The notes under the pieces: model-generated
Database searches by the model: none
What the model saw: the letters and a program-made list of their open reading frames with translations, nothing else
What the model was told of the DNA's origin: nothing
DNA from: an uncultured bacterium
GTDB lineage: Bacteria > Planctomycetota > SZUA-567 > JAKLDR01
NCBI GenBank assembly: GCA_937935355.1
Contig: CALGYR010000100.1
Location: 3,566-67,565 of the forward strand
DNA length: 64,000 nucleotides
Direction: 5' to 3'
In this document: piece by piece, positions 46 to 56,389 of the stretch
How positions within the stretch are numbered: the stretch's first letter is position 1
Layout: each line of letters starts with the position of its first letter
Position numbers and translations under genes: made by a program

Positions 46-119
46 AAGGGCCGTTCGGTGCAGCATCCGGCCTTCGTGATTGGACATGCGATGTTCGTCA
101 ATCTGCGGCTGGCGGTCCC

Positions 120-3029: not shown

Positions 3030-3240
3030 GCAGTGCCCGCCACTCGTCGGGTTTGCGGCTTTCGCTGGAAGCGTCGGGAACTGAGCCGGAATTCATCGCG
3101 CCCACCAGGAGAGAAGGAGCGACGTGCGGAACCGGACCGCCGCCGCAAGAGAACCACCCTGATCCTCAGGGAATCAAGGTGGTTCCAGAACAGGGCCTAC
3201 TCGCCCCTTTAGCGGAACTTTCGGCCCTGTTCCATATCTG

Positions 3241-4077: not shown

Positions 4078-4240
4078 AAGCCGTCAACCCCGGCCATTGT
4101 CCGCGCCCCCTCCGGCCGGCTAGGCTTGCTCTGAGGCCGGAAGAGAGGCCCCGGAGCCGGCGGCCGGCCGGGATTGTAGGCGGCCCCGGCCGCGGGCACA
4201 AGCGAGCCACGGAGGAAACGCGGCCATTGCAGAAGACGAT

Positions 4241-4361
4241 GCTCACCGCTGAGTCGCGGAGACGCAGAGACAGGATGCTGTCCGCGGCTGAGGCCTGCCC
4301 CATCAAAAGCCCTCGGCCACGTTCTGGAGGCAACTCTGCGACTCTGCGCCTCGGCGGTGAA
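4241..4361. repeat. family C hairpin element (GAGACGCGGAG-type arms, conserved loop)
   Basis: 'tcaccgctgagtcgcggagacgcagagac...tgtccgcggctgagg...ctctgcgactctgcgcctcggcggtgaa'. Confidence 0.75.
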
Positions 4362-4396
4362 GGCGTCTCTCGAAGAGGCCCTAACGGAGGATAGGC

Positions 4397-5452: not shown

Positions 5453-5456
5453 CCAC

Positions 5457-6557
5457 GTGCCCCTCAAGTGGAGGAAGGAACTCATCGCCGACGAGCGCTA
5501 CGAGTCGGCCGGGGTCTTCGACGTCGACGGCGACGGAGTGCCCGACATCGTTTCCGGCGCCTGGTGGTACAAGGGCCCGGACTTCAAGCAGGCCTTCAAG
5601 ATCGGCGAAGTCCGGGCCGAGGGCGAGTACTTCGACGACTTCTCGACCATCCCCATGGACGTCAACGGCGACGGCCGCCTCGACTTCATCACCGGCGGCT
5701 GGTGGGGCAACACCCTGCGTTGGCGCGAGAACCCCGGCGAGTACGACCCGAAGAAGAAGCCCTGGCCCGAGCACGTCATCGCCGAGACCGGCAACATCGA
5801 GACCACTCGTGCCTGGGACGTCGACGGCGACGGCGAGCTCGAGATCGTGCCCAACACCCCCAACGGGCCGCTCGTGGCCTACAAGCTCGTCCGCGATGCG
5901 AGCGGCAAGGGCACCGGGAAGTTCGCGGGTTACAAGCTCTGGAGCGCGAAGCAGGGCCACGGCCTGGGCTTCGGCGACATCGACGGCGACGGGCGGGGAG
6001 AGTTCATCCTGAACACCGGTTGGTTGAAGGCCCCGGCCGCCGGGCTCTTCTCCGGCGAGTGGACCTTCCACGAGGAGTTCAAGCTGATGCCCTGGGCGGC
6101 GAGCGTCCCGGTCCTGGTGGTCGACTTGAACGGCGACGGCCGCAGCGAGCTCATCGTCGGCAACGCCCACGGCTACGGCCTCGACTGGTGGGAGCAGTCC
6201 CCCGAGGCGGGCGGCAGGCGCTCCTGGAAGAAGCACCCCATCGACCCCTGGAACGCCCAGTACCACGACCTCCAGTGGGCGGACATCGACGGCGACGGGC
6301 AAGCCGAGCTCGTGACCGGCAAGCGCCACCGCGCCCACAACGGCAACGACATCGGCGAGGCGGACGACGTCGGCCTCTACTATTTCAAGTGGACGGGCGA
6401 AAGCTTCGCCAAGCAGGTCATCGACTACGGCCCGATCCGACAGGGCAAGGGCTGCGGCATCTTCTTCCAGTTGGCCGACCTGTCAGGCACCGGGCGGCTG
6501 GACATCGTGGCACCGGGGAAGGACGGGCTCTACGTCTTCCGAAACCTGGGGCTGTAG
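5457..6557 (+). CDS. FG-GAP/VCBS repeat-containing protein
   Basis: Repeated 'DVDGDG', 'DIDGDG' and 'DLNGDG' calcium-binding FG-GAP motifs. The start lies 5 bp after the oxidoreductase stop, suggesting an operon. Confidence 0.8.
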   Translation: MPLKWRKELIADERYESAGVFDVDGDGVPDIVSGAWWYKGPDFKQAFKIGEVRAEGEYFDDFSTIPMDVNGDGRLDFITGGWWGNTLRWRENPGEYDPKKKPWPEHVIAETGNIETTRAWDVDGDGELEIVPNTPNGPLVAYKLVRDASGKGTGKFAGYKLWSAKQGHGLGFGDIDGDGRGEFILNTGWLKAPAAGLFSGEWTFHEEFKLMPWAASVPVLVVDLNGDGRSELIVGNAHGYGLDWWEQSPEAGGRRSWKKHPIDPWNAQYHDLQWADIDGDGQAELVTGKRHRAHNGNDIGEADDVGLYYFKWTGESFAKQVIDYGPIRQGKGCGIFFQLADLSGTGRLDIVAPGKDGLYVFRNLGL

Positions 6558-6574
6558 GCACAAGATGGATCCCC

Positions 6575-6706
6575 ACCACAGAGCACACGGAGGGCACAGA
6601 GGACGGCCACAGTTGCTCATCTGCGGAGACACGGCCATGCCGCCCAAGGCTCTTGCCACAGTGAAAAGTCACGGTCGTCCTCCGTGTCCTCTGTGTCCTC
6701 TGTGGT
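6575..6706. repeat. family D hairpin (CACAGAGG-type arms)
   Basis: 'ccacagagcacacggagggcacagaggacgg-N68-cgtcctccgtgtcctctgtgtcctctgtgg'. Confidence 0.75.
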
Positions 6707-6766
6707 GAAGATCGCAGTTGTAGCCTTGGACGTTTCTCGAAACGGCCCTGGGAGGATTCCGGAGTC

Positions 6767-7885
6767 ATGACCAACCGCGAGAGACTCGTCGGGACCCTGA
6801 TCGGCCGGCCGGTCGACCGCGCGCCGCTGCCCTGGTGGATGGGTTTCAGTCCCTGGGGCGAGACGCTCGAGCGCTGGCGCCGGGAGTCGGGAGACCCGAG
6901 CCTGGACGTCCGCGCGCGGCTGGGCTTCGAGCCATTCTTCGCGGCGGTCCCGGCCGAGTACGGGCCCTTCCCGCGCTTCGAGAGGCGCGTCCTCGAGGAG
7001 ACTGCAGAGCACGCGACCTTCACCGACTGGCGCGGCATCACCGTCCGCCAGCGGAAGGGCTCGAGCGACATGCCGGAGTTCGTCGACCATCCGGTGAAGG
7101 GGCCCGACGACTGGAAGCGCTACAAGGAGGAGCGGCTGCTCCCGCGCGTCGAGGAGCGCCTGGCCGCGCTGCCGGAGTGGCTGGCCAGGGTTACGCCGGA
7201 GACGGCCGTGCAGGTCGGGGTCTTCCCCTGGGGCGTATTCGGCACGGCGCGCGACCTGCTCGGCGCCGAGGAACTGCTGGTCGGCTTCTACTCCGAGCCG
7301 GAGATGGTCCGCGACATCATGGAGACGAACGTCAGCCTGTGGCTGGCGCTATACGAGCGGATCGCCGATCACGTCCGGATCGACCACATCCACGTCTGGG
7401 AGGACATGTCGGGCCGGCAGGGCAGCCTGATCTCCCCGGCGATGGCCGAGGACTTCATGATGCCGCAGTACGACCGCATCGCCGACTTCGCCCGGCGCCG
7501 CGGCGTGCCGGTGGTCTCGGTGGACTCCGACGGGCAGGTCGACGAGCTCGTGCCGCTCATGATGCGCCACGGGGTCAACGCCTTCATGCCCTTCGAGGTC
7601 CAGGCCGGCTCGGACGTCGAGGAGTTCGGCCGGCGCTACCCCGGGATCGGCCTATTCGGCGGGCTCGACAAGCGCGCGCTGGCCGGTGGCCGGGCCGAAA
7701 TGCACCGCGAGCTCGACCGCGCCGAGCGGTTGCTGGCCCGCGGCCGGTGGGTGCCGGGCTTCGACCACCTCATCCCGCCCGAGGCGTCCTGGGAGAACTT
7801 CAGCTGGTTCGTAGGCGAGCTTCGGAAGCTGGTTATGCAGGCGGCCGGCGCCGCCCCCGCCACTGGCGCGGCGAGCACTTCATGA
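6767..7885 (+). CDS. uroporphyrinogen decarboxylase (URO-D) family protein, MtaA/CmuA-like methyltransferase family
   Basis: URO-D fold signatures, including 'HIHVWEDMSGRQGSLISP' and 'VDSDGQVDELVPLMMRHGVNAFMPFE'. Confidence 0.75.
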   Translation: MTNRERLVGTLIGRPVDRAPLPWWMGFSPWGETLERWRRESGDPSLDVRARLGFEPFFAAVPAEYGPFPRFERRVLEETAEHATFTDWRGITVRQRKGSSDMPEFVDHPVKGPDDWKRYKEERLLPRVEERLAALPEWLARVTPETAVQVGVFPWGVFGTARDLLGAEELLVGFYSEPEMVRDIMETNVSLWLALYERIADHVRIDHIHVWEDMSGRQGSLISPAMAEDFMMPQYDRIADFARRRGVPVVSVDSDGQVDELVPLMMRHGVNAFMPFEVQAGSDVEEFGRRYPGIGLFGGLDKRALAGGRAEMHRELDRAERLLARGRWVPGFDHLIPPEASWENFSWFVGELRKLVMQAAGAAPATGAASTS

Positions 7886-8747
7886 CCCGCTGGAAGTGGC
7901 GGTTGAAGCTCGAGAGGGTGGGGTAGCCCACCCGGCCGGCCACGTCCAGCACCCGCAGGCTGGTGCTCTCCAGGAGCGTCGTCGCCATCTGAAGGCGCAG
8001 ATAGGTTAGATAGTCGCGCGGGCTGCGCCCCGTCGCCCGGTGGAACATCCGGCGCAGGTTGCTCTCGCTCGTGGCGCAGAGCTCGGCGAGCTCGGCCATC
8101 CCCACCGGCTCGGCGTAAGTCCGCGAGAGGTGCTCGAGCGCCGGGGCGATGGCCTCGGCTGGACCGGCCCGCTCGCGCGGTGTCGCGTCAGGCTCGGCTC
8201 CCGGCAGCCGCTGGAGCAGACCCATGGCCGCCAGCACCAGCCCCCGGACCACCGTCCGGTGACCGGGCCGGGCGCCTCCGCCGGCGGCCTCCAACTCGGC
8301 GACGAGCTGCCTGACGGCCCCGACCAACTCCGGATGGGCGCCCGGCTTCACGATGTTCGGGAAGCCCGGTCCGCCGAGCGGGGCGATGCGCAGCGCCTCT
8401 CGGTCGTCGCTTGCGGCGCTCAGGAGCTTGGCGGGGTCGAGCATTACGAAGCTCCAGGAACTGCCCGTGTCGGGCGCGCTCTGGGCCCGGTGCATCTCGC
8501 GGTCGTTGATCACCGACACGTCGCCGGATGCGAAAGGCAGGACCTTGTCCTCGACCACGAAGATGCCGGCGCCCTGGTGGCAGTAGCCCAGTTCCAGGCA
8601 GTCGTGCAGGTGCAGCCCGGTGATGGGCTCGGTCGAGGGGGAATGGCGCCTGCCCATGGCTATCGGGAAGTCAGCTGGCAGCACGGACGGCATGAACTGC
8701 TGCTCGGCCGGCTGTCGTGAGCGATTCTGCACGGTTTTTGGCCGCAT
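7833..8747 (-). CDS. AraC family transcriptional regulator (cupin N-terminal domain)
   Basis: C-terminal AraC HTH 'MAELAELCATSESNLRRMFHRATGRSPRDYLTYLRLQMATTLL'. The true start may be the internal Met near 8693. The 3' end overlaps the convergent URO-D gene. Confidence 0.75.
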   Translation of the reverse strand: MRPKTVQNRSRQPAEQQFMPSVLPADFPIAMGRRHSPSTEPITGLHLHDCLELGYCHQGAGIFVVEDKVLPFASGDVSVINDREMHRAQSAPDTGSSWSFVMLDPAKLLSAASDDREALRIAPLGGPGFPNIVKPGAHPELVGAVRQLVAELEAAGGGARPGHRTVVRGLVLAAMGLLQRLPGAEPDATPRERAGPAEAIAPALEHLSRTYAEPVGMAELAELCATSESNLRRMFHRATGRSPRDYLTYLRLQMATTLLESTSLRVLDVAGRVGYPTLSSFNRHFQRVMKCSPRQWRGRRRPPA

Positions 8748-41287: not shown

Positions 41288-43576
41288 ATGAGGAACAGAT
41301 CCTCGGAGGCGGACGCCAGGATCGTTATCGACGACCTGCTCCGTCAGGCCGGGTGGGACCCGGCCGACAAGTCCCAGGTGGTCACGGAGTTCCATGTGGC
41401 CGGTTCCCCCCAGACGATAGCCGAGAGCAATCCGGCCTACGGACAAGGTGCGGCAGTGCTGGACGGAAGTGCCGAGCCTATGTCGGAGGCTGGTCCGGGC
41501 AGAGGCGACTACCTGCTTCAGGACCGGCGGGGCCGGCCGCTGGCGGTCGTCGAGGCCAAGAGGGCTGGGACCAATCCTTACTCCGCCAAGCAGCAGACGC
41601 TGCCCTACGCCAAGAAGGTGGGCGCGCCCTTCATCTTCCTGACCAACGGCGAGCTCATCTACTTCTGGGACTACATGAACGATGACGCCCGGATGGTCAA
41701 CTCGTTCTACTCCCGGCGCGACCTGGAACGGCTGGTCGAGATGCGCGCCACCCGCAAGGCTATGGCGACGGTCGAGATCCCGGAGTACTACCTTCGCCAG
41801 GGCGAGAACCGGCAGGTTCGGCCCTACCAGCGCGCCGCCATGCAGGCGCTCGACCACGCCGTCGAGCTCGGCAAGCGCCGCTTCCTGATCGAGTTGCCAA
41901 CGGGCACCGGCAAGACCGATCTCACCTGCCTCTACCTCAAGCGGTTGATCCAGGCCGGCCGGGCCGAGCGCATCCTCTTCCTGGTGGACCGTGAGCAGTT
42001 GGCCAAGCAGGCTCTGGAGGCGTTCCAGGATGTGCTGAGCCAGCACGGTAGCTACTGGCTCCGTCCGGGGATGGCGAGACAGGAGCAGCAGATCACTGTC
42101 TGCCTGCTCCAGACCATGATCGGGCGCTACAAGGAATTCACCAGCGGCTACTTCGACGTGGTCGTGGCCGATGAAAGTCATCGCTCTATCTATGGCGCCT
42201 GGCAGACGGCACTTACGCATTTCGACGCGCTGCACATCGGCCTGACCGCCACGCCCTCGGCCTACATCGAGCGCAACACCTTCGACTTCTACCAGTGCCG
42301 GGATGGCAAGCCGGACTTCTCGTTCCCCATCCAGCAGGCCTTCAAGGAGGGCTACCTCGCTCCCTACCGGTTCGCGTCGGGCATTACCGTCATCCTGGCC
42401 GAGGGCGCCGAGGTCGGGGAGGAGGACTACGACCCGGCCGAGTTCGAGCGCAAGTGGACCAACGAGGACACCAACCGGAAGATGATGCAGGAGTTCGACC
42501 GGCTGGCCTGGGAGAACTACCGCGAGCTGGCGCCCGGCCAGAAGATCGTCCCGGGCAAGGCGGTGGTCTTCGCCATCACCAAGCACCACGCTGCCCGGCT
42601 GGCCCAGTACCTGAACGAACTGCACCCAGAGCTCAAGGGCCGCTACGCCGAGGTTATTACCAGCGACGTGGCCAATGCCGACGAGCTCATCCGCAAGTTC
42701 CGGCGCGAGGACTACCCGCAGGTGGCGGTCAGCGTCGGCATGCTCGACACCGGTTTCGACTGCCGGGAGATCCTGCATCTGGTGATGTGCCGCCGGGTGC
42801 GCAGCCCGATCCTCTACCAACAGATGCGTGGGCGGGGAACCCGTACCGCGCCGCACATCGGCAAGCAGGGCTTCGTCATTTACGACTTCTTCGGCAATCG
42901 CGAGTACTTCAACGACAGTGACGCCGATGCCTTCACCGGCGCTGGCGGCGGACACGCCTCCGGCGGGCGGCCCAAGCCTCCCAGCGAGCCCCGCGACTTG
43001 GTGGAATTGGGGCTCCAGGACGAATGGCTTCACGCTGTGGCCTATGTCGAGGTCGGACCGGAAGGCGAGCGCGTCGACAAGAAGGACTACATCACCAATT
43101 GGCAGAAGACGGTCCAGGGCTCGGCCAAGGACGACCCGGTTATCAGGAAGGTCCGGGACGGCGAGTCCCTGAGCGAGGGTGAGGAGAAGGAACTCGCCGA
43201 CCGGCTCAACCGGCCGGAGATGTATTTCAACGAAGAGAACCTCCGGAGAGCCTACCGCCAGCCAGGCGGCAACTTGATCGACTTCATCAGGGCGGCCCTC
43301 GGCAGCCTCAAGATCAAGAGCCGCGAGGAAGTGCTGACTGAGAACTTCCAGGCTTGGCTGGTGGCCAAGTCACTTACCGCGCAGCAGGCCCAGTACCTGG
43401 CGCTGCTCAAGAACCGCGGCATCGTTCGCGGCAAGATCGAGATGGAGGATCTCTTCAGCCCACCCCTCTCGATCCTCAACGCTGCAGAACTCGGCGTCGA
43501 ACTCTTCGGTGAGAAGGGCTTGAAACAGGTAGTTGCCGACCTTAATGAATCCGTGTTCGGCAAGAAGGGTGCATAG
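41288..43576 (+). CDS. hsdR: type I restriction enzyme R subunit (HsdR) with EcoEI_R_C-like C-terminus
   Basis: HSDR_N nuclease motif 'DYLL..RPLAVVEAKRAG', helicase motifs 'ELPTGTGKT' and 'DESH', and the C-terminal 'AWLVAKSLTAQQAQYLALL'. The alternative ATG is at 41249. Confidence 0.85.
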   Translation: MRNRSSEADARIVIDDLLRQAGWDPADKSQVVTEFHVAGSPQTIAESNPAYGQGAAVLDGSAEPMSEAGPGRGDYLLQDRRGRPLAVVEAKRAGTNPYSAKQQTLPYAKKVGAPFIFLTNGELIYFWDYMNDDARMVNSFYSRRDLERLVEMRATRKAMATVEIPEYYLRQGENRQVRPYQRAAMQALDHAVELGKRRFLIELPTGTGKTDLTCLYLKRLIQAGRAERILFLVDREQLAKQALEAFQDVLSQHGSYWLRPGMARQEQQITVCLLQTMIGRYKEFTSGYFDVVVADESHRSIYGAWQTALTHFDALHIGLTATPSAYIERNTFDFYQCRDGKPDFSFPIQQAFKEGYLAPYRFASGITVILAEGAEVGEEDYDPAEFERKWTNEDTNRKMMQEFDRLAWENYRELAPGQKIVPGKAVVFAITKHHAARLAQYLNELHPELKGRYAEVITSDVANADELIRKFRREDYPQVAVSVGMLDTGFDCREILHLVMCRRVRSPILYQQMRGRGTRTAPHIGKQGFVIYDFFGNREYFNDSDADAFTGAGGGHASGGRPKPPSEPRDLVELGLQDEWLHAVAYVEVGPEGERVDKKDYITNWQKTVQGSAKDDPVIRKVRDGESLSEGEEKELADRLNRPEMYFNEENLRRAYRQPGGNLIDFIRAALGSLKIKSREEVLTENFQAWLVAKSLTAQQAQYLALLKNRGIVRGKIEMEDLFSPPLSILNAAELGVELFGEKGLKQVVADLNESVFGKKGA

Positions 43577-45776: not shown

Positions 45777-47041
45777 AGTGGCACTCGCCAAGGCTATCCA
45801 GACTTGCCCAGATCATCCGGGGCGTCTCGTTCGACAGCTCCGAGGCTAGCCCCACGCCAATTGCGGGGCATGTCCCTATCCTGCGCGCCGGCAACATCGG
45901 CCGCGACCTGGACACAGAGAATGACCTGATCTGGGTCCCGGCAGCCAGGGTGTCAGACGAACAAAGGCTCAAGGCAGGTGACATCGCGATTGCCATGTCG
46001 TCAGGAAGCTCCAATATCGTCGGGAAGACAGCACAGTTGAACCAAGCGTGGGACGGCTCCGTGGGGGCCTTCTGCGCGATCATCCGCCCGTTGGAGACTG
46101 TGAGCGCCGCATATCTCGGGTACTGGCTTCTTGGTCCCACCTTCACCGCATGGCGGCAATCGCAGTGTATGGGGCTGAACATCAAGAACTTGCGGAAGGC
46201 GGAGATCGAGTGCCTGGAAATCCCGCTCCCTCCTCCCTCCGAGCAGCACCGGATCGTGGAGATCCTCGACCAGGCCGACGCCCTGCGCCGGAAGCGCGCC
46301 GAGGCCGACGCCAAGGCCGGGCGCATCCTGCCGGCGCTCTTCTACAAGATGTTCGGGGATCCGGCGACGAATCCGAAGGGGTGGCCGGTGGTGCCTATCA
46401 GCAAGCTGGTTGAACCCATCGAACGGAGAGACCCCTCCGTTCAACCCGAAGAGCCTTTCACCTACATCGATATCGCGAGTGTGAATGGCCAGTTAGGCGT
46501 CATCACCGACACCAAAGCCTTGATGGGCGCAGAAGCTCCCAGCAGGGCGCGGCAGATTGTCAGGGCGAACGATGCAATCATCTCGACCGTCCGCCCATAC
46601 CTTCGAGCGACGGCATTAGTGCCTACGCAACATGACAACCAGATTTGCAGCACCGGATTCTGCGTCTTGAGGGCAAAGACAGGGGTGGGATTTGGCTTCT
46701 TGTATGCTCTTTCCCGCTTGCAGTGGTTCACAGACCAGCTTAACGCACGTGCCCGTGGAGCGTCATATCCGGCCGTGACGGATGCAGACGTTCTCAACCT
46801 GCGCGTGCCGCGACAGACCGACCGGGAAACACTTCAGATATTTGATCGCCAGGTGCTCGATGTCCTTGTGCAACAGGACAAGCGACGTGGAGTTGCATGC
46901 AGACTTGGTGTCTTGTTCGAGACGCTTCTCCACCGCGCTTTCACCGGCGACCTAATGGCCGGTTGGCGCGAGGCGCACATGAATGAACTCCAAATAGAGA
47001 TGGAATCACAGGCCAGAATGCTGAAGGGGGGCGATGAATGA
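45773..47041 (+). CDS. hsdS: type I restriction-modification specificity subunit (HsdS), two TRDs
   Basis: A 4 bp overlap with hsdM. The conserved central and C-terminal repeats are 'LEIPLPPPSEQHRIVEILDQADALRRKR' and 'LRVPRQTDRETLQIFDRQVLDV'. Confidence 0.85.
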   Translation: MKWHSPRLSRLAQIIRGVSFDSSEASPTPIAGHVPILRAGNIGRDLDTENDLIWVPAARVSDEQRLKAGDIAIAMSSGSSNIVGKTAQLNQAWDGSVGAFCAIIRPLETVSAAYLGYWLLGPTFTAWRQSQCMGLNIKNLRKAEIECLEIPLPPPSEQHRIVEILDQADALRRKRAEADAKAGRILPALFYKMFGDPATNPKGWPVVPISKLVEPIERRDPSVQPEEPFTYIDIASVNGQLGVITDTKALMGAEAPSRARQIVRANDAIISTVRPYLRATALVPTQHDNQICSTGFCVLRAKTGVGFGFLYALSRLQWFTDQLNARARGASYPAVTDADVLNLRVPRQTDRETLQIFDRQVLDVLVQQDKRRGVACRLGVLFETLLHRAFTGDLMAGWREAHMNELQIEMESQARMLKGGDE

Positions 47042-47673
47042 TCAGGATCAGTCTGAAGGGCCTAGCCAAATTCATGACCGGCAACTCCGCCAAGCAGCGC
47101 AAAGTTCTCAGGGACTACAAATACCCCGATCCAGAGGGGCATGCGCAGGCAACCTACTACCGAGAGGCCAGAGACTTCATCGTGTCCCATCACCAGAGTG
47201 GGCACAGCCCCCTCTGGCTCCCGGAGAGGGCCGCAATTCTCGACACGCTGGCATCTCAGTCGGCAGGGCAAACCAAAGTCCGCCTTCGCAATAATGCCCG
47301 GGCACTTCGAGAGTACGCGAACCACTTTGGGAAGCGGACATTCAAGGTGCTGCGCGATGTGAATCTCGGCATCGAACACGCCGGCGTTCTGGTAACCTTC
47401 GCTCCTGACCTCCACATCAAGGAAGGCGAGAAGGAGAAGATCATCAGACTTGACTTCACCAAGGAACCTCCTGACGACAAGACCGTCAAGATCATCACTC
47501 AGGCGATGTTTGAGGCGCAGGCAACTCTCGGGATGGGCTTGCCAAGTGCCGCAGTGCTCTACCTGGATGTGCCCCGTGGCCAAACGCACAAGGGTGCCAG
47601 GGCGGGGTCTCGGATGCGCACTGAGATCGAAGCGGCCTGCAAGAACATCTCTGCTCTGTGGGATGGAATCTAG
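47038..47673 (+). CDS. hypothetical protein (211 aa) translationally coupled to hsdS
   Basis: ATGA overlap with the hsdS stop. No recognisable domain. GC is lower. Confidence 0.5.
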   Translation: MIRISLKGLAKFMTGNSAKQRKVLRDYKYPDPEGHAQATYYREARDFIVSHHQSGHSPLWLPERAAILDTLASQSAGQTKVRLRNNARALREYANHFGKRTFKVLRDVNLGIEHAGVLVTFAPDLHIKEGEKEKIIRLDFTKEPPDDKTVKIITQAMFEAQATLGMGLPSAAVLYLDVPRGQTHKGARAGSRMRTEIEAACKNISALWDGI

Positions 47674-47682
47674 GGGAACAAG

Positions 47683-49404
47683 ATGCTCACCGCCCTCCAA
47701 CTCGCCCGCTTCAAGGCCTTTGGCGACCTCCAGCGCGTCCCGATCAAGCCGATCACCCTGATCTACGGCCCGAACAGCGCCGGGAAGTCGAGCCTGATCC
47801 ACAGCCTGATCCTGGCCCGCCAGGCGGCCGAGACCGGCGAACTGGACGTCCACCGCACCCCGGTCGGCGGCGACTCGGTGGACCTGGGCGGCTTCCGGCA
47901 ATACGTCCACCGGCGCAACGCCGGCGAGCGGGTCGAGTGGGCCATGGAGCTCGATACCAGCCGTTTCACTGGGCGCCTGGCTACGCTTCTGGCGGCGGCC
48001 AAGGTGGTTACAGCTCGCGTCGAGGTCGGCTTGGCTCACGAGGAGAAGAAGCGCAAGCGTTTCGTCCTCGATCCCCGGACCGACAAGGCAATCGAGATCG
48101 AGGAACCCACCGGCGAGATGGTGGCCGTGGGGCAACCCGCAATCCAGAGCTTCAAATTGGAGGCCGACTCCACGCCACTCCTGGAGATGAGCCGCCGGCC
48201 GAGCGGCGGCTTCCGGCTGGACAGACTGCACCATGGGCATGCCGTGTTCCGGGAGGTGATCAAGGCCATAGTGGCAGCCTCCACGACGACGGAGTCGTTG
48301 CAGCCGTCCGACTACGAAGGTCTGGACAAGGCAATAGACGCCCTTGTCCCCGACATAGTCGCCACCTGCCGCGGTTTACTACCGGATGGTCTGGCGAAAG
48401 CCGAAGGGCCGGATTCGGAGAAGCCTCCCACGTTGTTTCCAATCAGCAAGGGCCGCCGGCAGGAGGACTTGGCCGCCGCAGTCCGCTTCTTCGTGCCCCG
48501 TACTATTGAAGAACTGCTCAAGGGCGTGAGCCAGACGGTGGGCTTCGAGCTCGACCGATTGCATTATCTCGGACCGCTGCGCTCCTACCCGCCGCGACAC
48601 TTGGCATTTGCCCAGCACCACGATCCCAACTGGATCGCGGGTGGTGGATATGCATGGGACGCGGTGCGGCGGGACGGCAGAGTGCGCGCTCAAGTGAACG
48701 AGTGGTTGGGTGCCAAGAACCGGCTGCAGACGCCTTACGAACTTACCCTGCGTGAACTGGTGGGCGTGGATCAACTGGAGACGCCGATATCCGAAGGCAT
48801 CGAGAATCATCTGGGTCGCGAGGCTGAAGCAAGCAAAGGCCCTGTTGAGGTTGCCGATGATCTAGAGATTAGCAGGTTGCCGTTCCCTGACTTGCTGGAT
48901 GAGCTCCTAACGGCCATCAATTCGGCCGACATCGAGAAACTAGACGAACTTATTCTGAAGGACTGTCGATCCAATACGGTTGTCAGCCACCGCGACGTTG
49001 GCATCGGCATCAGCCAAGTGCTCCCGGTGCTCGTCAGCGCCTACGCCTCCCAGGACCGCCTGGTGGCCATCGAGCAACCGGAGATCCATCTGCATCCCAA
49101 GCTCCAGGCCGAGCTGGGCGACGTGTTTCTGGAGTCCGCCCTCGGCGAGCGCCGGAACACCTTCCTGCTCGAGACCCACAGCGAGCACGTCCTGCTCCGC
49201 ATCATGAAGCGCATGCGCCAGATGGCCGACGGCAGCCTGCCCGAGGGCCTGCCCAAGGTGCGCCCGGAGGATGTGGCGGTGCTCTACGTCGAGCCGGACG
49301 GCTCCCGGAGCATCGTCCGGGAGATGCCGCTCAACGAGCGCGGCGACCTGGTCAAAGCCTGGCCCGGCGGGTTCTTCGAAGAAGGCCTCGACGAGATGTT
49401 CTGA
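47683..49404 (+). CDS. AAA_21/OLD-family ABC-type ATPase (RloA/PtuA/AriA-like)
   Basis: Walker A 'IYGPNSAGKSSL' and D-loop/Walker B region 'LVAIEQPEIHLHP...LLETHSEHVL'. No C-terminal Toprim domain was seen. Confidence 0.75.
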   Translation: MLTALQLARFKAFGDLQRVPIKPITLIYGPNSAGKSSLIHSLILARQAAETGELDVHRTPVGGDSVDLGGFRQYVHRRNAGERVEWAMELDTSRFTGRLATLLAAAKVVTARVEVGLAHEEKKRKRFVLDPRTDKAIEIEEPTGEMVAVGQPAIQSFKLEADSTPLLEMSRRPSGGFRLDRLHHGHAVFREVIKAIVAASTTTESLQPSDYEGLDKAIDALVPDIVATCRGLLPDGLAKAEGPDSEKPPTLFPISKGRRQEDLAAAVRFFVPRTIEELLKGVSQTVGFELDRLHYLGPLRSYPPRHLAFAQHHDPNWIAGGGYAWDAVRRDGRVRAQVNEWLGAKNRLQTPYELTLRELVGVDQLETPISEGIENHLGREAEASKGPVEVADDLEISRLPFPDLLDELLTAINSADIEKLDELILKDCRSNTVVSHRDVGIGISQVLPVLVSAYASQDRLVAIEQPEIHLHPKLQAELGDVFLESALGERRNTFLLETHSEHVLLRIMKRMRQMADGSLPEGLPKVRPEDVAVLYVEPDGSRSIVREMPLNERGDLVKAWPGGFFEEGLDEMF

Positions 49405-50345
49405 TGGCTCTGCTTGCCGAATACGCTCTGACCCCGGACGTCTTCGACTCGGCTTCCTACGCCGGCGAGGAGATCGGCGATCTGCACCTGTCCCATCTCA
49501 AGGAGGCGCTCCTGGACGACGGGGTTGTCCGGAGCCTGCGTAACGGCGAGTGGCTGGCGCAGTTTAGCGGTGACGGTCGCATGTGGCACCGCCGCGGCAA
49601 GGAGCTACTTCACAAGCTGGACAAGCAAGGACGGCTGAGGGCCTGCGCCCCCGTGGGCAACGCCTGCCCGGCAGTTGACTGTGACTGGTGCCATGAGGCC
49701 TTGGGTTCTCACGCCCGTCTCCCGCTTGGCGGGATCGTGGTGACAGACTGTGTCGCGTCAGCCTTCGTGGGGAACCCACTGGTGGCCTCGGTCACGAAGC
49801 TCCCGGCAGCACAATGGTGGAGCGAGCGAAGCCCATCGGCCCGTCTGGTACGGACGAAAGTCGAGTACCAGCGGCACCTTGGCCTGCTTCTGGAGTGTTC
49901 GCGGTCCATTGCCTTCATCGACGCACATCTGGATCCCAGCCAAGGCCGCTACAAGGACTTCGTTGCCATCCTCGCCGGCATGGCGGGCATGAAGCGGGTG
50001 CCGCGGATAGAACTGCATCGCGTATGCCACTCGCAGTTGCGCGGAGAGAAGCCCGACAAGAGGCCGGATCCCGAGCTCAGGCCACTGTTCTTGCGAGAGC
50101 TGTCCTCCCCGTTGAAGGCGGCCGGAATGTCCATCGAGGCGTTCTTCTGGGACGACTTCCATGATCGCCACATCGTCAGCAATCTTGCGGTCCTGCATCT
50201 GGGCAATGGCCTGGATACCACCACCCATCCAAGCGCGATGACTACGTGGACTAGGCTAGGTCGACGTGAAGCCGACGATGTGCGGCGTGAGTTCGATCCT
50301 GCAAGCGGTCGCCACACGCTGGTAGAACGCTTCCCCATTCCATGA
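49404..50345 (+). CDS. hypothetical protein (313 aa), partner of the ATPase
   Basis: A 1 nt TGATG overlap with the ATPase stop. No recognisable domain. Confidence 0.5.
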   Translation: MALLAEYALTPDVFDSASYAGEEIGDLHLSHLKEALLDDGVVRSLRNGEWLAQFSGDGRMWHRRGKELLHKLDKQGRLRACAPVGNACPAVDCDWCHEALGSHARLPLGGIVVTDCVASAFVGNPLVASVTKLPAAQWWSERSPSARLVRTKVEYQRHLGLLLECSRSIAFIDAHLDPSQGRYKDFVAILAGMAGMKRVPRIELHRVCHSQLRGEKPDKRPDPELRPLFLRELSSPLKAAGMSIEAFFWDDFHDRHIVSNLAVLHLGNGLDTTTHPSAMTTWTRLGRREADDVRREFDPASGRHTLVERFPIP

Positions 50346-50608
50346 AACGCCGCAAAGCCAATCCCCAACCCGAATTCGAGCCCACCCGCATCTCGGGCTT
50401 CCGCCCCGTGGCGTTCTTCTTCGCCCTGATCGCCTTCTACCTCCTGGGCCTGACCATCTGGAGCCCATTCTACATCCTCTGGCCCCGCCGCTACCCGGGG
50501 ACGAACTGGTTCCAGTCCGTGGCCATCCGCGGCAGCCTGGTCTGGCAGCTCTGGTCGCGGTACGTCTTTGGGCAGGCCTGGGGGCTGCTGCGCGGCCGGC
50601 ACCGGTAG
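50342..50608 (+). CDS. small membrane protein (88 aa)
   Basis: ATGA overlap with the upstream stop. Two hydrophobic helices: 'FRPVAFFFALIAFYLLGLTIW'. Confidence 0.45.
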   Translation: MKRRKANPQPEFEPTRISGFRPVAFFFALIAFYLLGLTIWSPFYILWPRRYPGTNWFQSVAIRGSLVWQLWSRYVFGQAWGLLRGRHR

Positions 50609-50609
50609 G

Positions 50610-50640
50610 GTTCTCAACCACGAAACACACGAAATACACG
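50610..50640. repeat. three direct 9-bp CACGAAANN units
   Basis: 'cacgaaacacacgaaatacacgaaaga', immediately after the stop of the small TM gene. Confidence 0.55.
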
Positions 50641-50739
50641 AAAGAGGCTTCGAGAGCCGCCGAACGGTGAGCAGGAAGTGTTTCGCCGAGGTTAGCTACC
50701 AAGCCTTCGTGAGGGGCCGGAACCGGGGACATGGAGACC

Positions 50740-50860
50740 CGGTCGTTGTTGTTGTTCACACAGAGCCGCGGAGCCACGGAGAACGGCAAACCAGGCCGTT
50801 GTTGTCCTCTGTGTCTCTGCGTCTCCGTGTGAGAAACAGCCGTTGCTGTTGCCATCATCC
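50740..50860. repeat. family D hairpin
   Basis: 'cacacagagccgcggagccacggagaacgg-N25-gtcctctgtgtctctgcgtctccgtgtgagaa'. Confidence 0.65.
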
Positions 50861-50866
50861 TGCACG

Positions 50867-51685
50867 TCACAAGTCCTCCGCCGCGTACACCAACTCCTTC
50901 TGGAGCTTGGTGAGGGCTCTCTGGGCCTGGCTCCGCAGCTGCCAGAGACGGTCCAGATCGCCGGGGTCGCTCACCGCCGCCTGGGCCAGTTCGGCGCTGG
51001 CGCGCAGGAGCGCCAGGGCGGTGCTCTGCAATGCCGGCCCCCCCTTCAGCTTCCGGGTGGTGTTCACGATCCCGTCGATGACGGGCTGCCAGTCAGCGCG
51101 GGGTTTGCTTGCTTTTGTGGGGGCCGGCTGCGCCAGTTCCGGTTCCAGCGTCGTGACGACTTGGTCGCGGCGCTTGGCGGTCGCGTACTCTTCCCTTAAC
51201 CTGGCGCGGATACCGGGGCCGAAGGTCATGGGGTAGGTGGCAAGCCAGCCGTCGTAGACTATCCTGCTCTTGAACGGCAACAGCACCGTTCGCACCATTA
51301 CAGGCATGGGCCCCAGGCTGAACAAGTCCTCGAAGCTCTCGGACAGGCCCAAAACTCCGTAGGCGCGCGAACCGCCGAGCAGGATGGCGTGGTTCTTCAG
51401 AAACCGGAAGACATAGAAGTCGCCGGCCACGAAGCGTTTCCACTTCTGTACGATCTCCAGTTCGTCCGCCGGCAGTTTGTCCGGATTGTCCCTGACGTAG
51501 GCGTCGATCAGGTCCGGTTCCTTCCACAATGCCTCCCTTGTCCGGTACTTATCGTCTTTGGGCAACGCGGCAAACGCCTCCGCGGACGTGGTATCCGGGA
51601 GCAGGCCGCGCTGTCTGCCGACGTAGGACTGAAGTCCCCATATCAAGCGATAGAACAGGGCGGCTTCTTCCTTCTCCAACTTCAC
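50867..51685 (-). CDS. hypothetical protein (about 272 aa)
   Basis: The listed 411 aa ORF has a GC-artefact N-terminus. The real start is probably the GTG at 51685, overlapping the upstream stop (GTGA). Confidence 0.45.
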   Translation of the reverse strand: MKLEKEEAALFYRLIWGLQSYVGRQRGLLPDTTSAEAFAALPKDDKYRTREALWKEPDLIDAYVRDNPDKLPADELEIVQKWKRFVAGDFYVFRFLKNHAILLGGSRAYGVLGLSESFEDLFSLGPMPVMVRTVLLPFKSRIVYDGWLATYPMTFGPGIRARLREEYATAKRRDQVVTTLEPELAQPAPTKASKPRADWQPVIDGIVNTTRKLKGGPALQSTALALLRASAELAQAAVSDPGDLDRLWQLRSQAQRALTKLQKELVYAAEDL

Positions 51686-52078
51686 GTCCTTCCCCTGCCA
51701 GGCCGGCCGGCTGCGTGGTCCCCGGCTTCGCCCTCTCCGGCGTGGCCCCGCCGGAGCCCTTCGAGCGCCTCGATTCTCGCCCGGGTCTCCTCCGACAGGT
51801 TCTCCACATGTTCCGGGCCCAGGAGGTCGTGCTGCTTCAACTGGAACAGCTTGGCGAAGAGCGTCGACCGGCTCCAGTCGTCGAAGCAGTCGGCGACGAT
51901 GCGGTTGGAGTCCTTGAGGTGCCGGTAGAGCCGGCGGTATTTGTCGGCTTCGGACTGCCCGGCGGCCGCGAGGATGTCCATCGACTGCCGGTTGATGCGC
52001 CCGAACAGGGCGGCGAGCAGCTCCTCCTGGGCCTTCCGCATGTACTTCCAGTCGCGCTCGGGGATGTCTCTGGACATG
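51682..52078 (-). CDS. hypothetical protein (132 aa)
   Basis: Starts at 'MSRDIPERDWKYMRKAQEEL'. Coupled to its flanking genes by overlaps. Confidence 0.45.
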
Positions 52079-52079
52079 C

Positions 52080-52607
52080 TTAGCCTCCCGTTCTCTCCGC
52101 ACCCCGGCCGCCCCTCGCCCGGGTCCACTCCCGGGATGGCGGGGGCTCCGCTATGGGCGGCTCGATGCCTGCCGGGAACCATCCGCCGCGGGTCATTTGC
52201 AGCTCCTTGTAGGTTTTGAACATGAAGGCATGTTTGAGGACTTCGGCCGGAGGCCTGGGGTGCTTCATGTTCTCCCGCCAGTGCTTCTTCTCCAGTGTGC
52301 CGAAGACCAGATAGTCGCCGCCGATCAAGTCGGGGTCCAACTCCACGAACAGGTCGGTGAGCAGGCGTTCGATCTCGTGCTTGTGGGCGGCCAACAGGTC
52401 GCAGCCCCGGCAGTAGCGGCAGGTGTAGTTGAGGGCGACCATCCGCTTCTCGCCGACGTCGATCAGCAGGGGAAGCTTGCGCTGTCCGGTCTTGCGGTGG
52501 CAGACAGGGCAGATCGAGAGCCGCACGTCGGGATAGGGGTTCATGATGAACCCGTATCTGCGGGGCGGCTCCCCTGCACTCGGATCCCAGGCCTTGGCCA
52601 TATCCAT
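52080..52607 (-). CDS. hypothetical zinc-ribbon protein
   Basis: 'CPVCHRK...CRYCRGC', a four-Cys arrangement. Confidence 0.5.
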   Translation of the reverse strand: MDMAKAWDPSAGEPPRRYGFIMNPYPDVRLSICPVCHRKTGQRKLPLLIDVGEKRMVALNYTCRYCRGCDLLAAHKHEIERLLTDLFVELDPDLIGGDYLVFGTLEKKHWRENMKHPRPPAEVLKHAFMFKTYKELQMTRGGWFPAGIEPPIAEPPPSREWTRARGGRGAERTGG

Positions 52608-52623
52608 ATGTTGTCTCCTGTCG

Positions 52624-53370
52624 CTACTTGCGTTGTTCTTCGGCGCCCCCCGGTCCCCGGTCCTCCATGTTCACCTCAAGGCCGTTCTCCCGGCACCACT
52701 CGAGAATGGCCGCTCGGGTCGCCTCATTCTCGAAATCGTGCCACTTCTGGAGCAGGCCGTGGCGCTCGAGCAGGTCCTTGTAGCGGCCGTAGGCGCCGCG
52801 CCGGCTGAAAATCCGGCCGACCTCCCCGGCGAGCTGCGGCGCGTGCCGGTTCACGAAGTTCCCGACCAGGTCGGCGCCCAGGTCCAGGTCGTTCTTGTGA
52901 GGGATCGAGAGGTAGTCTTCCCCGCCCGCGTCCTCGGGCATCTCGTCCATGTCCGCCATCTCGGAGGAGAAGAAGGTCTGCCCCGTCTTCCGGTGGATGC
53001 AGGCGGAGTGATCGCCGTACGGTGCAGAACCCACGAAGTCGAACGCCATTTCGACTTCGGAAAACTTGATGGCCATGCGCTTCTCCTTTGACAGGTTGTC
53101 CGGCTTGGAAACTCCAGCGTCCGGGGGCTGCTGCGCGGCTGCGTCTCTGTTCAACTCGTACTGGTAGAGCTCCTCCCACATCTCGTTCTGGGCAAGCCAG
53201 ACGGGGTCGGCGTTCCTGGCGACGAATTCGTCGACGGGCATCCCGTCGATGGTCGGCGGACGCCTTACCCGCTTCTGCTTGCCGTTGACGAAGATGGTCA
53301 TGAACTCGAGCCGGCGCCGCCGTTTCTCGGCCTTCTCCTTGGCGGTCAGCTTGCGCTTGCGGCGTGACAC
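52624..53370 (-). CDS. hypothetical protein with Lys/Arg-rich N-terminus
   Basis: 'MSRRKRKLTAKEKAEKRRRRLEF'. No recognisable domain. Confidence 0.5.
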   Translation of the reverse strand: MSRRKRKLTAKEKAEKRRRRLEFMTIFVNGKQKRVRRPPTIDGMPVDEFVARNADPVWLAQNEMWEELYQYELNRDAAAQQPPDAGVSKPDNLSKEKRMAIKFSEVEMAFDFVGSAPYGDHSACIHRKTGQTFFSSEMADMDEMPEDAGGEDYLSIPHKNDLDLGADLVGNFVNRHAPQLAGEVGRIFSRRGAYGRYKDLLERHGLLQKWHDFENEATRAAILEWCRENGLEVNMEDRGPGGAEEQRK

Positions 53371-53379
53371 GGGGTGCCG

Positions 53380-54078
53380 TCAGCCGTTCTTGGGCCAGGC
53401 TTCCAAGCGTTCAAGCCACGTCCGGAAGAGCGGGCACTGAGCTCTGATGGCCTCCAACCCTATCTCCAGGACGGCTAAGGTCCCCATGACGGGCTTCTCA
53501 TAGCCGGGCAGCAGCGATTCCACGCGCTTCGACGGGGCCGTCTGAGGGGAATCGTTCACCTCCTCGGGGCTGGCGAAATCGTCCCGTATAGCCTGGAACG
53601 CCGGAGCCAGATCGGGGTGTCCGATTCCGCCGGCGAACCGGGAGCAGTCGCTGAAGAGCAGCCCCTCGAACTCGTGCATCATCACATAGGGAATGAACCG
53701 GCCCGGGTTGAAATCCTCGCCCATCCCTCTACAGACATCCGCCAGCAGGGCGTTCTCGACGGTTGAAGCTTTCTGTGGAAACGGCAAGCGGCCCGCATCG
53801 GCCCGACCGGGCCAGGCCCTGGGACCGCTGCAGGGCAGTCCGTAGTAGTCCACCATGGTCGTTACCAGGCATTCCCCATCCTGCTTGAGGTGGTTCCGAA
53901 TGTCGCCCCGTACTTCCCCCCAGCCGCGGATGCCACCGCGGCGTTGGCGCTGCCGTGCGTTGCCGAGGAGCCGGGCGCCGACCGCCGTGTAGCCATGCTC
54001 GTAAAGGTGGGCCGCGAGCACCTGAGTGACGAAGGATTCCTCCGTCTCGCCTTCCACGTGGACCAGCAATCTAGCCAT
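53380..54078 (-). CDS. DUF4276 family protein (Toprim-like)
   Basis: N-terminal 'MARLLVHVEGETEESFV' resembles the DUF4276/Toprim 'VEGxxE' signature. An 8 bp overlap with the upstream ATPase. Confidence 0.65.
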   Translation of the reverse strand: MARLLVHVEGETEESFVTQVLAAHLYEHGYTAVGARLLGNARQRQRRGGIRGWGEVRGDIRNHLKQDGECLVTTMVDYYGLPCSGPRAWPGRADAGRLPFPQKASTVENALLADVCRGMGEDFNPGRFIPYVMMHEFEGLLFSDCSRFAGGIGHPDLAPAFQAIRDDFASPEEVNDSPQTAPSKRVESLLPGYEKPVMGTLAVLEIGLEAIRAQCPLFRTWLERLEAWPKNG

Positions 54079-55189
54079 GGGCGCGTTCCGCCCCAGGCCG
54101 GCCGCCGAACTCGTTCTTTTCCCAGAGCTGGCCGAGGCTGTAGTTCTCGAGCCATGTGGCCAGCTTGGCGGACTCCAGACGGGTGAACTCGGTTCCCCCG
54201 TGTGCCCGGTCGGCCACCAGCACATCCTCCGGTGCAAAATGGTCCAGGAGGAGAGGTGATTGGGTGGAGACGATGGCCTGTGTCTTGATCGAGGCCTGCT
54301 TGATCAGCGAGGCCAGCATGGTTATGGCGTAGGGATGCAGGCCCAGCTCCGGCTCGTCCACGAGAATAACCGAAGGTCTGTGGGCCTCCGGCTGCATGAA
54401 GAGGGTCGTCAGCGCGATGAAACGCAGCGTCCCGTCCGAGAGCGAGGAGGCGTCGAAGTAGGCCTCGGAGCCCTTGTGCCGCCACTCCAGACGGATCTTG
54501 TCCGGATTGAGCTTCTGCGGCTCCAGCATGAAGTCGTCGAAGAACGGGGTGACCAACTGGACCGTCTTGCGGATGAGGTTGTAGGATGTCTGGTGCTTGA
54601 GCCGAAGATAGTAGAGGAAGGCGGCGAGGTTCGAGCCGTCCGGGCGGAGGTAACGGTTGTCGTTCACGTCGGCCGTCTTCTTCATGGGCGACGAATCGCT
54701 GGTGTCGTGAAAATGGTAGAGCCGCCAGCTGCCGAGGCGGAAGCGAACGTACTTGGCGGTTCGCTCGCAGCCCGGATCGCTGATGCCAGCCTCCGCGCCC
54801 CTCGGCGCGATCCCGCTCTCATAGGGCTTTTCGTAGTGGGCCTTGTCCCAGTAGTAGCCGGTCTCGGCGGTACGGCGCAATTGATCGCCGGCTGCGGGCT
54901 CCAGGGTTATGGCGTACTGGTTGACGCCTTCCTGGAAGGAGATGTGAATCTCCAGCTTCTGAGTGGTCTTCGAGCCGAAGTGCAGCACCTTGTCGGCGCC
55001 GCCGGCCTTGGCGACGTAGTCCTGCAGGTGCCCCTCCCGGATGGCGTGGAGGAAGGCGAAGACGCCGATGAAGTTGGACTTGCCCGAGCCGTTGGGGCCG
55101 ATGACCACGTTGATGGGCCCGAGCTTCAGATTCTCGACGGAAGCGATGCTCTTGAAGCCCTTCACGGTGATGCTGTCTAGCTCAGCCAT
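54071..55189 (-). CDS. AAA family ATPase (AAA_21/SMC-like ABC ATPase)
   Basis: Walker A 'VIGPNGSGKSNF' and Walker B/D-loop 'ILVDEPELGLHP'. It is the usual partner of DUF4276. Confidence 0.8.
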   Translation of the reverse strand: MAELDSITVKGFKSIASVENLKLGPINVVIGPNGSGKSNFIGVFAFLHAIREGHLQDYVAKAGGADKVLHFGSKTTQKLEIHISFQEGVNQYAITLEPAAGDQLRRTAETGYYWDKAHYEKPYESGIAPRGAEAGISDPGCERTAKYVRFRLGSWRLYHFHDTSDSSPMKKTADVNDNRYLRPDGSNLAAFLYYLRLKHQTSYNLIRKTVQLVTPFFDDFMLEPQKLNPDKIRLEWRHKGSEAYFDASSLSDGTLRFIALTTLFMQPEAHRPSVILVDEPELGLHPYAITMLASLIKQASIKTQAIVSTQSPLLLDHFAPEDVLVADRAHGGTEFTRLESAKLATWLENYSLGQLWEKNEFGGRPGAERAHG

Positions 55190-55408
55190 TGCGCGATTCC
55201 TCTGCCGGACCGTCCGGCATTGTAGCGGGCCGGGCGGCGGTTGCATGGACATGATACTTCGGGCAGGAGGGCGGTCAAGGATGATCATCTGTCGGCGCCA
55301 TGCCCGCGGCCTGGAGGACCAACACGCCCATACCGATCGGCCGCCCCCGGGATGATTCCCCCCTCCGCCCGTCGTTTAGTCAGTGCGCCGAGGGGGAGCC
55401 GCACTACT

Positions 55409-56389
55409 ATGGAAACCGCCTTCGAACGCGCCGTAACTGCCGCCATCGGCGACGAGCTGCACGCCGTCGAGATCGACACCATCCAGGCCAACCTGGGGCT
55501 GCGCTGCGACCTGGCCTGCGCGCACTGCCACCTGGACGCCTCTCCGGACCGGGTCGAGTCCATGGAGTGGCCGGTGATGGCACAGCTGGTGGAGGCCGCC
55601 CAGAACTCGGGCTGCCGCCAAGTCGAGCTCACCGGCGCCGCGCCCGAGCTGCATCCCGACTTCCGGCGGTTGGTGGCGGCGCTCCGCGAGGCCGAGGTTG
55701 GCGTGGAGTTGCGCACCAACTTCACGGCGCTGCTCGCCGAGGGCAACGAGGACCTGCCGGAGTTCCTGCGCGATCAGGGCGTGCGGGTGGTCGGCTCGCT
55801 GCCGTGCTACATGGAGGAGAACGTCGACGCCCAGAGGGGGGAGGGCGTCTTCGCGCTCAGCATGCAGGCGATGCGGCGGCTCAACGAGCTCGGCTACGGC
55901 CGCGGCATCGACCTGTCTCTCGACCTCGTCCACAACCCGGTCGGCGCCTTTCTGCCGCCCAGGCAGGAGGTCCTGGAGGCCGACTATCGCCTGGAGCTTG
56001 ACCGCCGCTACGGCGTGAGCTTCAACCGCCTGTTCGTCATGAACAACTCCGCCATGGGCCGCTTCCTGACGGCGCTGCGCGAGCAGGGGCGGGAGGGCGT
56101 CTACCAGCGGCTGCTCGAGGAGTCCTTCAATCCGGCGACCCTCGACGGCCTGATGTGCCGCCACCTGGTGGCCGTCCGCTGGGACGGGACGATCTTCGAC
56201 TGCGACTTCAACCTGGCGCTCGGCCTGCCCGTCCACCACGCGGTCCCGAACCGACTGGAGGAGTTCGAGCCTCTGGAACTGGCCGGCCGCAAGATCATGC
56301 TCGGAGAGCACTGCTTCGGCTGCGCCGCCGGCCACGGCTCGGGCTGCACAGGTGCACTCTCGGCGACCACGGCGGGGGAGAGGATGTGA
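55409..56389 (+). CDS. radical SAM/Cys-rich domain protein (ArsS-like, TIGR04167-type)
   Basis: Radical SAM 'CDLACAHCH' and a C-terminal Cys-rich 'CFGCAAGHGSGCTGAL'. Confidence 0.75.
   Translation: METAFERAVTAAIGDELHAVEIDTIQANLGLRCDLACAHCHLDASPDRVESMEWPVMAQLVEAAQNSGCRQVELTGAAPELHPDFRRLVAALREAEVGVELRTNFTALLAEGNEDLPEFLRDQGVRVVGSLPCYMEENVDAQRGEGVFALSMQAMRRLNELGYGRGIDLSLDLVHNPVGAFLPPRQEVLEADYRLELDRRYGVSFNRLFVMNNSAMGRFLTALREQGREGVYQRLLEESFNPATLDGLMCRHLVAVRWDGTIFDCDFNLALGLPVHHAVPNRLEEFEPLELAGRKIMLGEHCFGCAAGHGSGCTGALSATTAGERM

Follow-up and report, generated by a model that had tools for sequence, protein, structure and literature searches.

A HEC-01-type ATPase and DUF4276 gene pair followed by four probable passenger genes in a low-GC island of an uncultured planctomycete

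The six-gene block and the A/B pair

We analyzed a block of six genes within a 64,000-nucleotide stretch of DNA from an uncultured bacterium of the phylum Planctomycetota (GenBank assembly GCA_937935355.1, contig CALGYR010000100.1). The whole stretch is here referred to as the window. The block starts with a gene pair coding for an ATPase and a DUF4276 protein, and four further genes follow. In an earlier note, made from the letters of the sequence alone, the six had been placed at 50867-55189 on the minus strand and read as one operon. These coordinates were correct and all of the open reading frames (ORFs) were found. The six co-directional ORFs, here named genes A to F, run on the minus strand from position 55189 down to 50867. 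These were: gene A (55189..54071, 372 amino acids (aa)), gene B (54078..53380, 232 aa), gene C (53370..52624, 248 aa, with a GTG start), gene D (52607..52080, 175 aa), gene E (52077..51682, 131 aa) and gene F (51685..50867, 272 aa, again with a GTG start). The gene lengths of the earlier note were right with the exception of gene E, for which 132 aa had been given.

The stop of gene A and the start of gene B overlap by 8 bp (ATGGCTAG), an overlap that had already been described. At the further junctions the genes were separated by 9 bp (B-C), 16 bp (C-D) and 2 bp (D-E), and genes E and F overlapped by 4 bp (GTGA). Public gene calls on contig DAIPLX010000026.1 of GCA_036768975.1 and on a near-identical ENA contig were the same for genes A to E; on the near-identical ENA contig gene F was called with 270 aa instead of 272 aa. 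In total, 79 clusters of homologues were obtained for gene F, more than 466 for gene C, 109 for gene D and 311 representative ones for gene E. Since each of them has many conserved homologues, genes A to F are real genes and not chance ORFs.

Gene A codes for an ABC-type ATPase. It matched the Pfam model AAA_21 with an E-value of 8.9e-29, and SMC_N and AAA_15 matched as well. Its top-scoring PADLOC model was HEC-01A (PDLC04175, E = 1e-141), with residues 2-365 aligned to positions 4-362 of the 363 positions of the profile. For gene B, DUF4276 was the only match in Pfam (E = 9.4e-49; 166.7 bits at a cut-off of 30.2; profile positions 1-192 of 192) and HEC-01B the only match in PADLOC (PDLC04188, E = 1.1e-71). 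The DUF4276 assignment made in the earlier note therefore held in a profile search.

HEC-01, which stands for "Hma-embedded candidate 01", was defined by Payne et al. as a Hachiman-embedded ABC ATPase with a TOPRIM-like partner (bioRxiv 10.1101/2024.01.29.577857). The published system has two genes, and the TOPRIM metal-binding site is conserved in the HEC-01 models (bioRxiv 10.1101/2024.01.29.577857). The A/B pair agrees with it in the full-length, top-scoring matches of both proteins, in the adjacent, co-directional and overlapping position of the two genes and in the combination of an ABC ATPase with a DUF4276/TOPRIM protein. It differs in its setting: here the pair lies outside Hachiman at the edge of a low-GC island, it is convergent to a Type I restriction-modification (R-M) operon, and four genes stand behind it. 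Judged by sequence, the A/B pair is a new member of the catalogued candidate module HEC-01. The pair had previously been compared to a split ATPase-nuclease pair of the OLD/PARIS type. This was right at the level of the superfamily (OLD/PARIS/Gabija-like), and the specific assignment is the PADLOC family HEC-01.

The motifs that had been quoted for the ATPase and the DUF4276 protein are present and are conserved in the relatives. In an alignment of 79 sequences of gene A, the Walker A motif (G31-K37-S38), a signature-like LSDGT (250-254) and the Walker B motif ILVDE (275-279) were at least 97% conserved. The same degree of conservation, at least 97%, was found among 58 sequences of gene B for the acidic residues E9, E13, E14, D67, D77, E136 and E138. 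The assignment of the acidic residues of DUF4276 to the E/DxD positions of a TOPRIM site rests on published structure predictions, and gene B is described here as a predicted TOPRIM-like nuclease effector. DUF4276 has independently been assigned to the Toprim superfamily and identified with Mad4 of MADS, the methylation-associated defence system (PMC12065111). Sequence searches of the PDB with genes B and C and with profiles of genes E and F gave nothing significant, and no solved DUF4276 structure was found for gene B in this way. The best match of gene A to a solved structure was the OLD-family entry 6p74 (E = 1e-5), over the P-loop region only.

Relatives of the pair were collected by a scan of JGI metagenome contigs with gene A. 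The scan gave 351 relatives, of which the best 80 (67-80% identity) were used for neighbourhood counts. Gene B directly followed gene A in 78 of these 80 loci, as determined by profile and sequence searches of all ORFs. Homologues of UPF0158 (the family to which the C-terminal part of gene C belongs), of the N-terminal module of gene C and of genes D, E and F were found in none of the 80 loci, of which 40 have a flank of at least 800 bp downstream of gene B and 28 have one of 2.6 kb or more, as much as genes C to F take up. Distant pairs carried by plasmids (35-41% identity) were two-gene units as well, with unrelated genes downstream.

The commonest gene order among the 80 loci was hsdM-hsdS-A-B-hsdR-radC. 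Of the 55 loci with room for it, 20 had an hsdS gene directly upstream of the pair on the same strand, and 21 of 40 had hsdR directly downstream of it. Because of these flanking counts, the HEC-01 subfamily formed by the closest relatives is typically embedded in Type I R-M operons, whereas the pair analyzed here is adjacent to one instead. In relatives of the pair, the gene after hsdR codes for a RadC-like JAB protein (loci L086-L165; for example L133, positions 1-5544, as well as L140, L116 and L165).

The four downstream genes

Gene C consists of a Lys/Arg-rich N-terminal module (about residues 1-75) and a C-terminal part that matched UPF0158 (PF03682) with 24.5 bits at a cut-off of 21.1 (residues 167-236). 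The claim that none of the four downstream genes has a known domain was thus wrong for this gene. Homologues of gene C carry precomputed PF03682 assignments, and its C-terminal ~135 residues are 50-62% identical to stand-alone UPF0158 proteins. Such stand-alone proteins of 136-146 aa make up most of the homologue clusters. Compared with the UPF0158 family, gene C carries an extra basic N-terminal module of about 100 aa, which was found in only a few homologues (e.g. P0081). P0081 is also the closest full-length homologue, and in the one locus that was sampled the next gene codes for a SEC-C-motif protein and not for D. No NCBIfam or PHROGs match was obtained for gene C.

The N-terminal module of gene C (motif ...IDGMPVDEF..NADP.WL.QNEMWE) was additionally seen in a metagenome-assembled genome (MAG) of the Bacteroidetes (L034, 7771-8306), as a separate ORF of ~70 aa that directly precedes a gene of the E family. 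A degraded form of the module lies beside an E fragment in a Desulfobacteraceae MAG (L076, 2630-3012). This adjacency was seen in two of 57 E loci and represents a sporadic link at most.

Gene D belongs to a zinc-ribbon family with the motifs CPxC ... CRYCxxC, for which no Pfam model exists. Its homologues were sampled in five distinct contexts, namely next to a cassette with a PT-HINT toxin, next to genes for a GGDEF protein, an aldehyde dehydrogenase or a sigma factor, and on Nostoc plasmids. None of the five contained homologues of A, B, C, E or F.

The family of gene E comprises proteins of ~105-110 aa with the conserved motifs E.DWKY ... CFDDWRRS. Here as well no Pfam model exists, and typical members gave no Pfam match. 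A genome scan with 11 close sequences led to 57 loci, each in a different genome, with many phyla represented. Within 8 kb of E, none of the 57 loci contained A, B, F or UPF0158, and a recurring neighbour was absent among them. In a single locus (L055) a frameshifted D-like gene was located 1 kb from E. This locus of a Pyrinomonadaceae MAG (5400-8306) holds a same-strand array of a 134-aa ORF, a 180-aa ORF, the D-like pseudogene, a gene for a 280-aa SEC-C-motif protein and the E homologue. Together with the SEC-C-motif protein that follows the closest homologue of gene C (L166, 938-2044), the array hints that such orphan families tend to gather in arrays. One E homologue (P0338) is fused to an N-terminal Xre-type HTH_3 domain.

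Gene F is composed of a conserved N-terminal core of ~185 aa, built of helices and a small beta-barrel, and a variable C-terminal helical bundle. It has no Pfam model. Its AlphaFold model reached a pLDDT (predicted local distance difference test) of 91.9, and the fold matches were generic helix bundles or weakly OB-like only. In the homologues P0071-P0073 a DUF6398 domain (PF19935) takes the place of the C-terminal helical bundle. Five distinct contexts of gene F, among them that of the nearest homologue located on a long contig (59% identity), were without B, C, D and E. The neighbours of F homologues were a TumE gene, a Y1 transposase gene and genes for a helicase, an HU-like protein and an acetyltransferase, and in one lineage ATPase fragments.

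The latter were seen in L008 (9176-10906; also in L009 and L010), where the F homologue stands directly downstream of two AAA_21/AAA_15 fragments of 87 and 97 aa. Beyond the F homologue, L008 contains an SLFN_AlbA_2 gene and then an AAA_21+DUF3696 ATPase gene, the latter accompanied by a 164-aa partner. The neighbourhood has the appearance of a defence island in decay. The F core (residues 1-198, 31-33% identity) also occurs on plasmids: on megaplasmids of Ruminococcus albus it is split into two ORFs right after an IS66 transposase gene (pRUMAL02; L167, 5001-5540), and on haloarchaeal plasmids it is a 302-aa gene amid toxin-antitoxin and transposase genes (Halovenus plasmid; L168, 4983-5891). 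With these plasmid occurrences, members of the F family are known from both Bacteria and Archaea, in regions where mobile elements abound.

Genes D, E and F gave no match in Pfam, PADLOC, NCBIfam or PHROGs and no fold match in the PDB. The predicted structures of D and F were of high confidence and without a counterpart among solved structures. Among 2.9 million viral contigs (IMG/VR), neither single-protein scans nor alignment-based motif scans found D, E or F; these scans provide no evidence that the genes are phage-borne. D, E and F belong to conserved and widespread families that lack a Pfam model.

Several features of the block itself connect all six genes. They are oriented alike, their junctions lie between -8 and +16 bp, and the lower GC content of the island is common to all of them. 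A sigma-70-like promoter match (TTGACC-16-TATCAT; 55251..55278, minus strand; a consensus match only) lies ~62 nt upstream of the start of gene A. It was the only such match in the region 50200-55500, where 0.3 sites would be expected, and no minus-strand terminator-like site was found inside the six-gene block. The junction spacing, the single promoter-like site and the absence of an internal terminator-like site suggest that all six genes are transcribed together here.

The same features would fit a lineage-specific, extended variant of HEC-01 in which C to F serve as accessory sensor, regulator or antitoxin-like subunits. We consider this highly improbable. C to F were missing in all of the 80 closest pair loci and the pair was missing in all 57 E loci. 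Furthermore, the homologues of C, D and F (closest 59-65% identity) stood in unrelated, often housekeeping contexts, and HEC-01 was published as a system of two genes. It is likewise very unlikely that C to F were recruited in this lineage as accessory or regulatory partners of HEC-01. This would create a new six-component variant that has, beside the pair, a UPF0158 protein whose N-terminal module is basic, a protein with a zinc ribbon, a small helical protein and a 272-aa protein that is possibly OB-like; in a weaker version, D, E and F would act in inter-genomic conflict.

Based on these data we would rather separate the block between genes B and C. It most likely consists of the two-gene module HEC-01 and four unrelated, independently distributed passenger genes, C to F, which are probably co-transcribed with it here. 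This interpretation is carried by family membership, by the adjacency of A and B, by the conserved ATP-binding and acidic residues and by the missing synteny of C to F with the pair, all of which were directly observed. Two outcomes had been named beforehand as speaking against a six-gene system: a failure of the DUF4276 assignment and a lack of synteny of the downstream genes with the pair in other genomes. The former did not occur and the latter is what we found, so that the six-gene system proposed in the earlier note did not stand.

Some points weigh against a separation into module and passengers. With their close spacing (-4 to 16 bp) and an orientation in common with A and B, genes C to F would fit a functional operon, and a lineage-specific recruitment is compatible with non-synteny elsewhere. 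The arrangement is present in one lineage only, represented by the MAG and the near-identical ENA contig, and has no independent replicate. The sampling of contexts was small, with one locus for gene C, five distinct places for gene D and five plus the plasmids for gene F. Additionally, the F homologue of L008-L010 follows an N-terminal AAA_21 fragment of 97 aa with 50% identity to gene A over 54 residues. We rejected a link between F and ATPases on this basis; the fragment covers the generic P-loop region only and a B homologue is absent. Finally, when assayed in Escherichia coli, HEC-01 failed to protect from any of the phages used (bioRxiv 10.1101/2024.01.29.577857), so that even the defence role of the A/B pair is unproven.

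A different origin of the four genes has to be considered as well. They may be heterogeneous small "conflict" genes that were gathered in a variable island independently of HEC-01, either as orphan immunity- or antitoxin-like genes or as cargo of mobile elements. The families are all small and well conserved, and their members lie scattered as single genes over many phyla without fixed neighbours; L055 offers a comparable same-strand array. The N-terminal module of C as a separate small ORF beside the E homologue in L034, the D homologue beside the PT-HINT toxin cassette and the F homologues near a TumE gene, Y1 and IS66 transposase genes and toxin-antitoxin genes of haloarchaeal plasmids point in the same direction. 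However, the block in the window contains no toxin gene, C to F matched no Pfam immunity family and nothing in PADLOC or PHROGs, several contexts of D and F look ordinarily metabolic, and the motif scan of the viral contigs did not find D, E or F. We regard such an array of conflict genes as possible, if weakly supported, and on the whole as rather unlikely.

The low-GC island and the facing R-M operon

The block forms one end of a compositional island that extends from 41.2 to 55.2 kb of the window. Genes within the island had a GC content of 0.58-0.68 and a GC content at third codon positions (GC3) of 0.72-0.92. The flanking genes (radical-SAM/DUF3641, BatA and VWA) showed values of 0.70-0.71 and 0.93-0.98, respectively. 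No tRNA gene and no Rfam family was found in the window and no integrase gene at the edges of the island, and an integration site was not identified.

On the plus strand the island carries, in this order, hsdR (41288-43576), a 170-aa ORF, hsdM, hsdS, a 211-aa ORF, a gene for a 573-aa ATPase, a 313-aa ORF and an 88-aa ORF. The convergent, tail-to-tail position of the six genes and a Type I R-M operon, as previously described, was confirmed, with the operon being longer by the last four of these genes (47038-50608, plus strand). Given these extra genes at its end, the spacer between the operon and gene F amounts to ~258 bp (50609-50866). With the A/B pair and the Type I R-M operon converging in the low-GC island, the term two-sided defence island is a fair description.

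No matches were obtained for the 211-aa and 313-aa ORFs. The 88-aa ORF is hydrophobic and its start overlaps the stop of the 313-aa ORF by 4 bp. The 573-aa protein is an AAA_21+DUF3696 ATPase with PDC-M55A (1.4e-42), NsnB (1.3e-41) and HEC-03B (2.4e-40) as its best PADLOC matches. This group appears to be a second candidate module with an ATPase, joined to the R-M operon. An assignment of the 211-aa, 573-aa and 313-aa genes to Menshen (NsnABC) was not adopted, since NsnA is defined by ParB-DUF262, to which the 211-aa protein gave no match.

A long imperfect hairpin (50758..50829, minus strand) is located in the convergent spacer ~40 nt past the stop of gene F. It contains two nested perfect inverted repeats of 8 nt, ACACAGAG/CTCTGTGT and CACGGAGA/TCTCCGTG, and no U-tract. 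The RNA fold of the region 50700-50870 gave a z-score of -1.63, which is not significant. The transcription unit may end at this hairpin, perhaps with a bidirectional terminator.

Related ATPase-nuclease systems and a possible function of the pair

The pair shares with PARIS a split arrangement of an AAA_15/21-type ABC ATPase and a separate nuclease of the TOPRIM superfamily, and likely also the logic of a sensor and a released effector. It differs in the nuclease, which is a DUF4276 protein here and a DUF4435 protein in the case of AriB; gene B did not match the AriB model. PARIS itself was rejected as an assignment, with the AriA model (PDLC02980) matching gene A at E = 1.6e-28, far weaker than HEC-01A at 1e-141.

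OLD and GajA of Gabija also couple an ABC ATPase to a TOPRIM nuclease. However, both parts are fused in one polypeptide there and encoded by separate genes here. Gabija additionally has a UvrD-like helicase (GajB), whereas no helicase is present in the six-gene block. Neither OLD nor Gabija was accepted; the Old model covers the ATPase segment only (2.4e-16).

In MADS, Mad3 is an AAA-family ATPase and Mad4 a DUF4276 homologue. Both sit with methyltransferase and specificity genes, as do the closest relatives of the pair. MADS is reportedly a multi-gene system, and other mad genes were not identified at the locus. Gene A reached 111.1 bits against the NCBIfam model antiphage_MADS3, which has a cut-off of 420, and 5.9e-27 against the PADLOC model mad3. 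For the hsdM and hsdS genes of the window, the ordinary Type I models gave far better matches than did mad2 and mad5. MADS was therefore rejected as well.

By analogy with PARIS, OLD and Gabija, the ATPase encoded by gene A would most likely act as a sensor that holds or gates the TOPRIM nuclease encoded by gene B. A trigger derived from the phage would change the state of the ATPase and license the nuclease. As the closest relatives are embedded in Type I R-M operons, this trigger could be linked to the evasion of restriction. The nuclease would then cut nucleic acid, either DNA as in OLD and Gabija or tRNA as in PARIS, and the infection would abort. The roles of sensor and effector, the trigger, the substrate and the defence activity of the pair are all inferred from these systems.

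It is also conceivable that the pair has no role in defence and represents a selfish, addiction-type ATPase-nuclease module or an accessory of the Type I R-M enzymes. The only published test, in which HEC-01 was without anti-phage activity, would be in line with this, and pairs are found on plasmids as well. Among close relatives whose flanks are long enough, about half have the pair between hsdS and hsdR, and this would fit a role tied to the R-M enzymes too. Nevertheless, we consider it unlikely that the pair is unrelated to defence. The related modules in which an ABC ATPase is paired with a TOPRIM protein (OLD, Gabija, PARIS and Mad3/Mad4 of MADS) have been described as defence systems or components of such systems. 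Furthermore, embedding in a defence operon predicted activity in seven of nine candidates tested (bioRxiv 10.1101/2024.01.29.577857).

What appeared to be a novel six-gene defence operon is thus, in our reading, a catalogued two-gene candidate followed by passenger genes, and is not to be taken for a new system. As conserved families without a Pfam model, genes D, E and F are a modest lead in their own right. For HEC-01 itself, the frequent insertion of the closest relatives between hsdS and hsdR is a modest lead that might point to its trigger.

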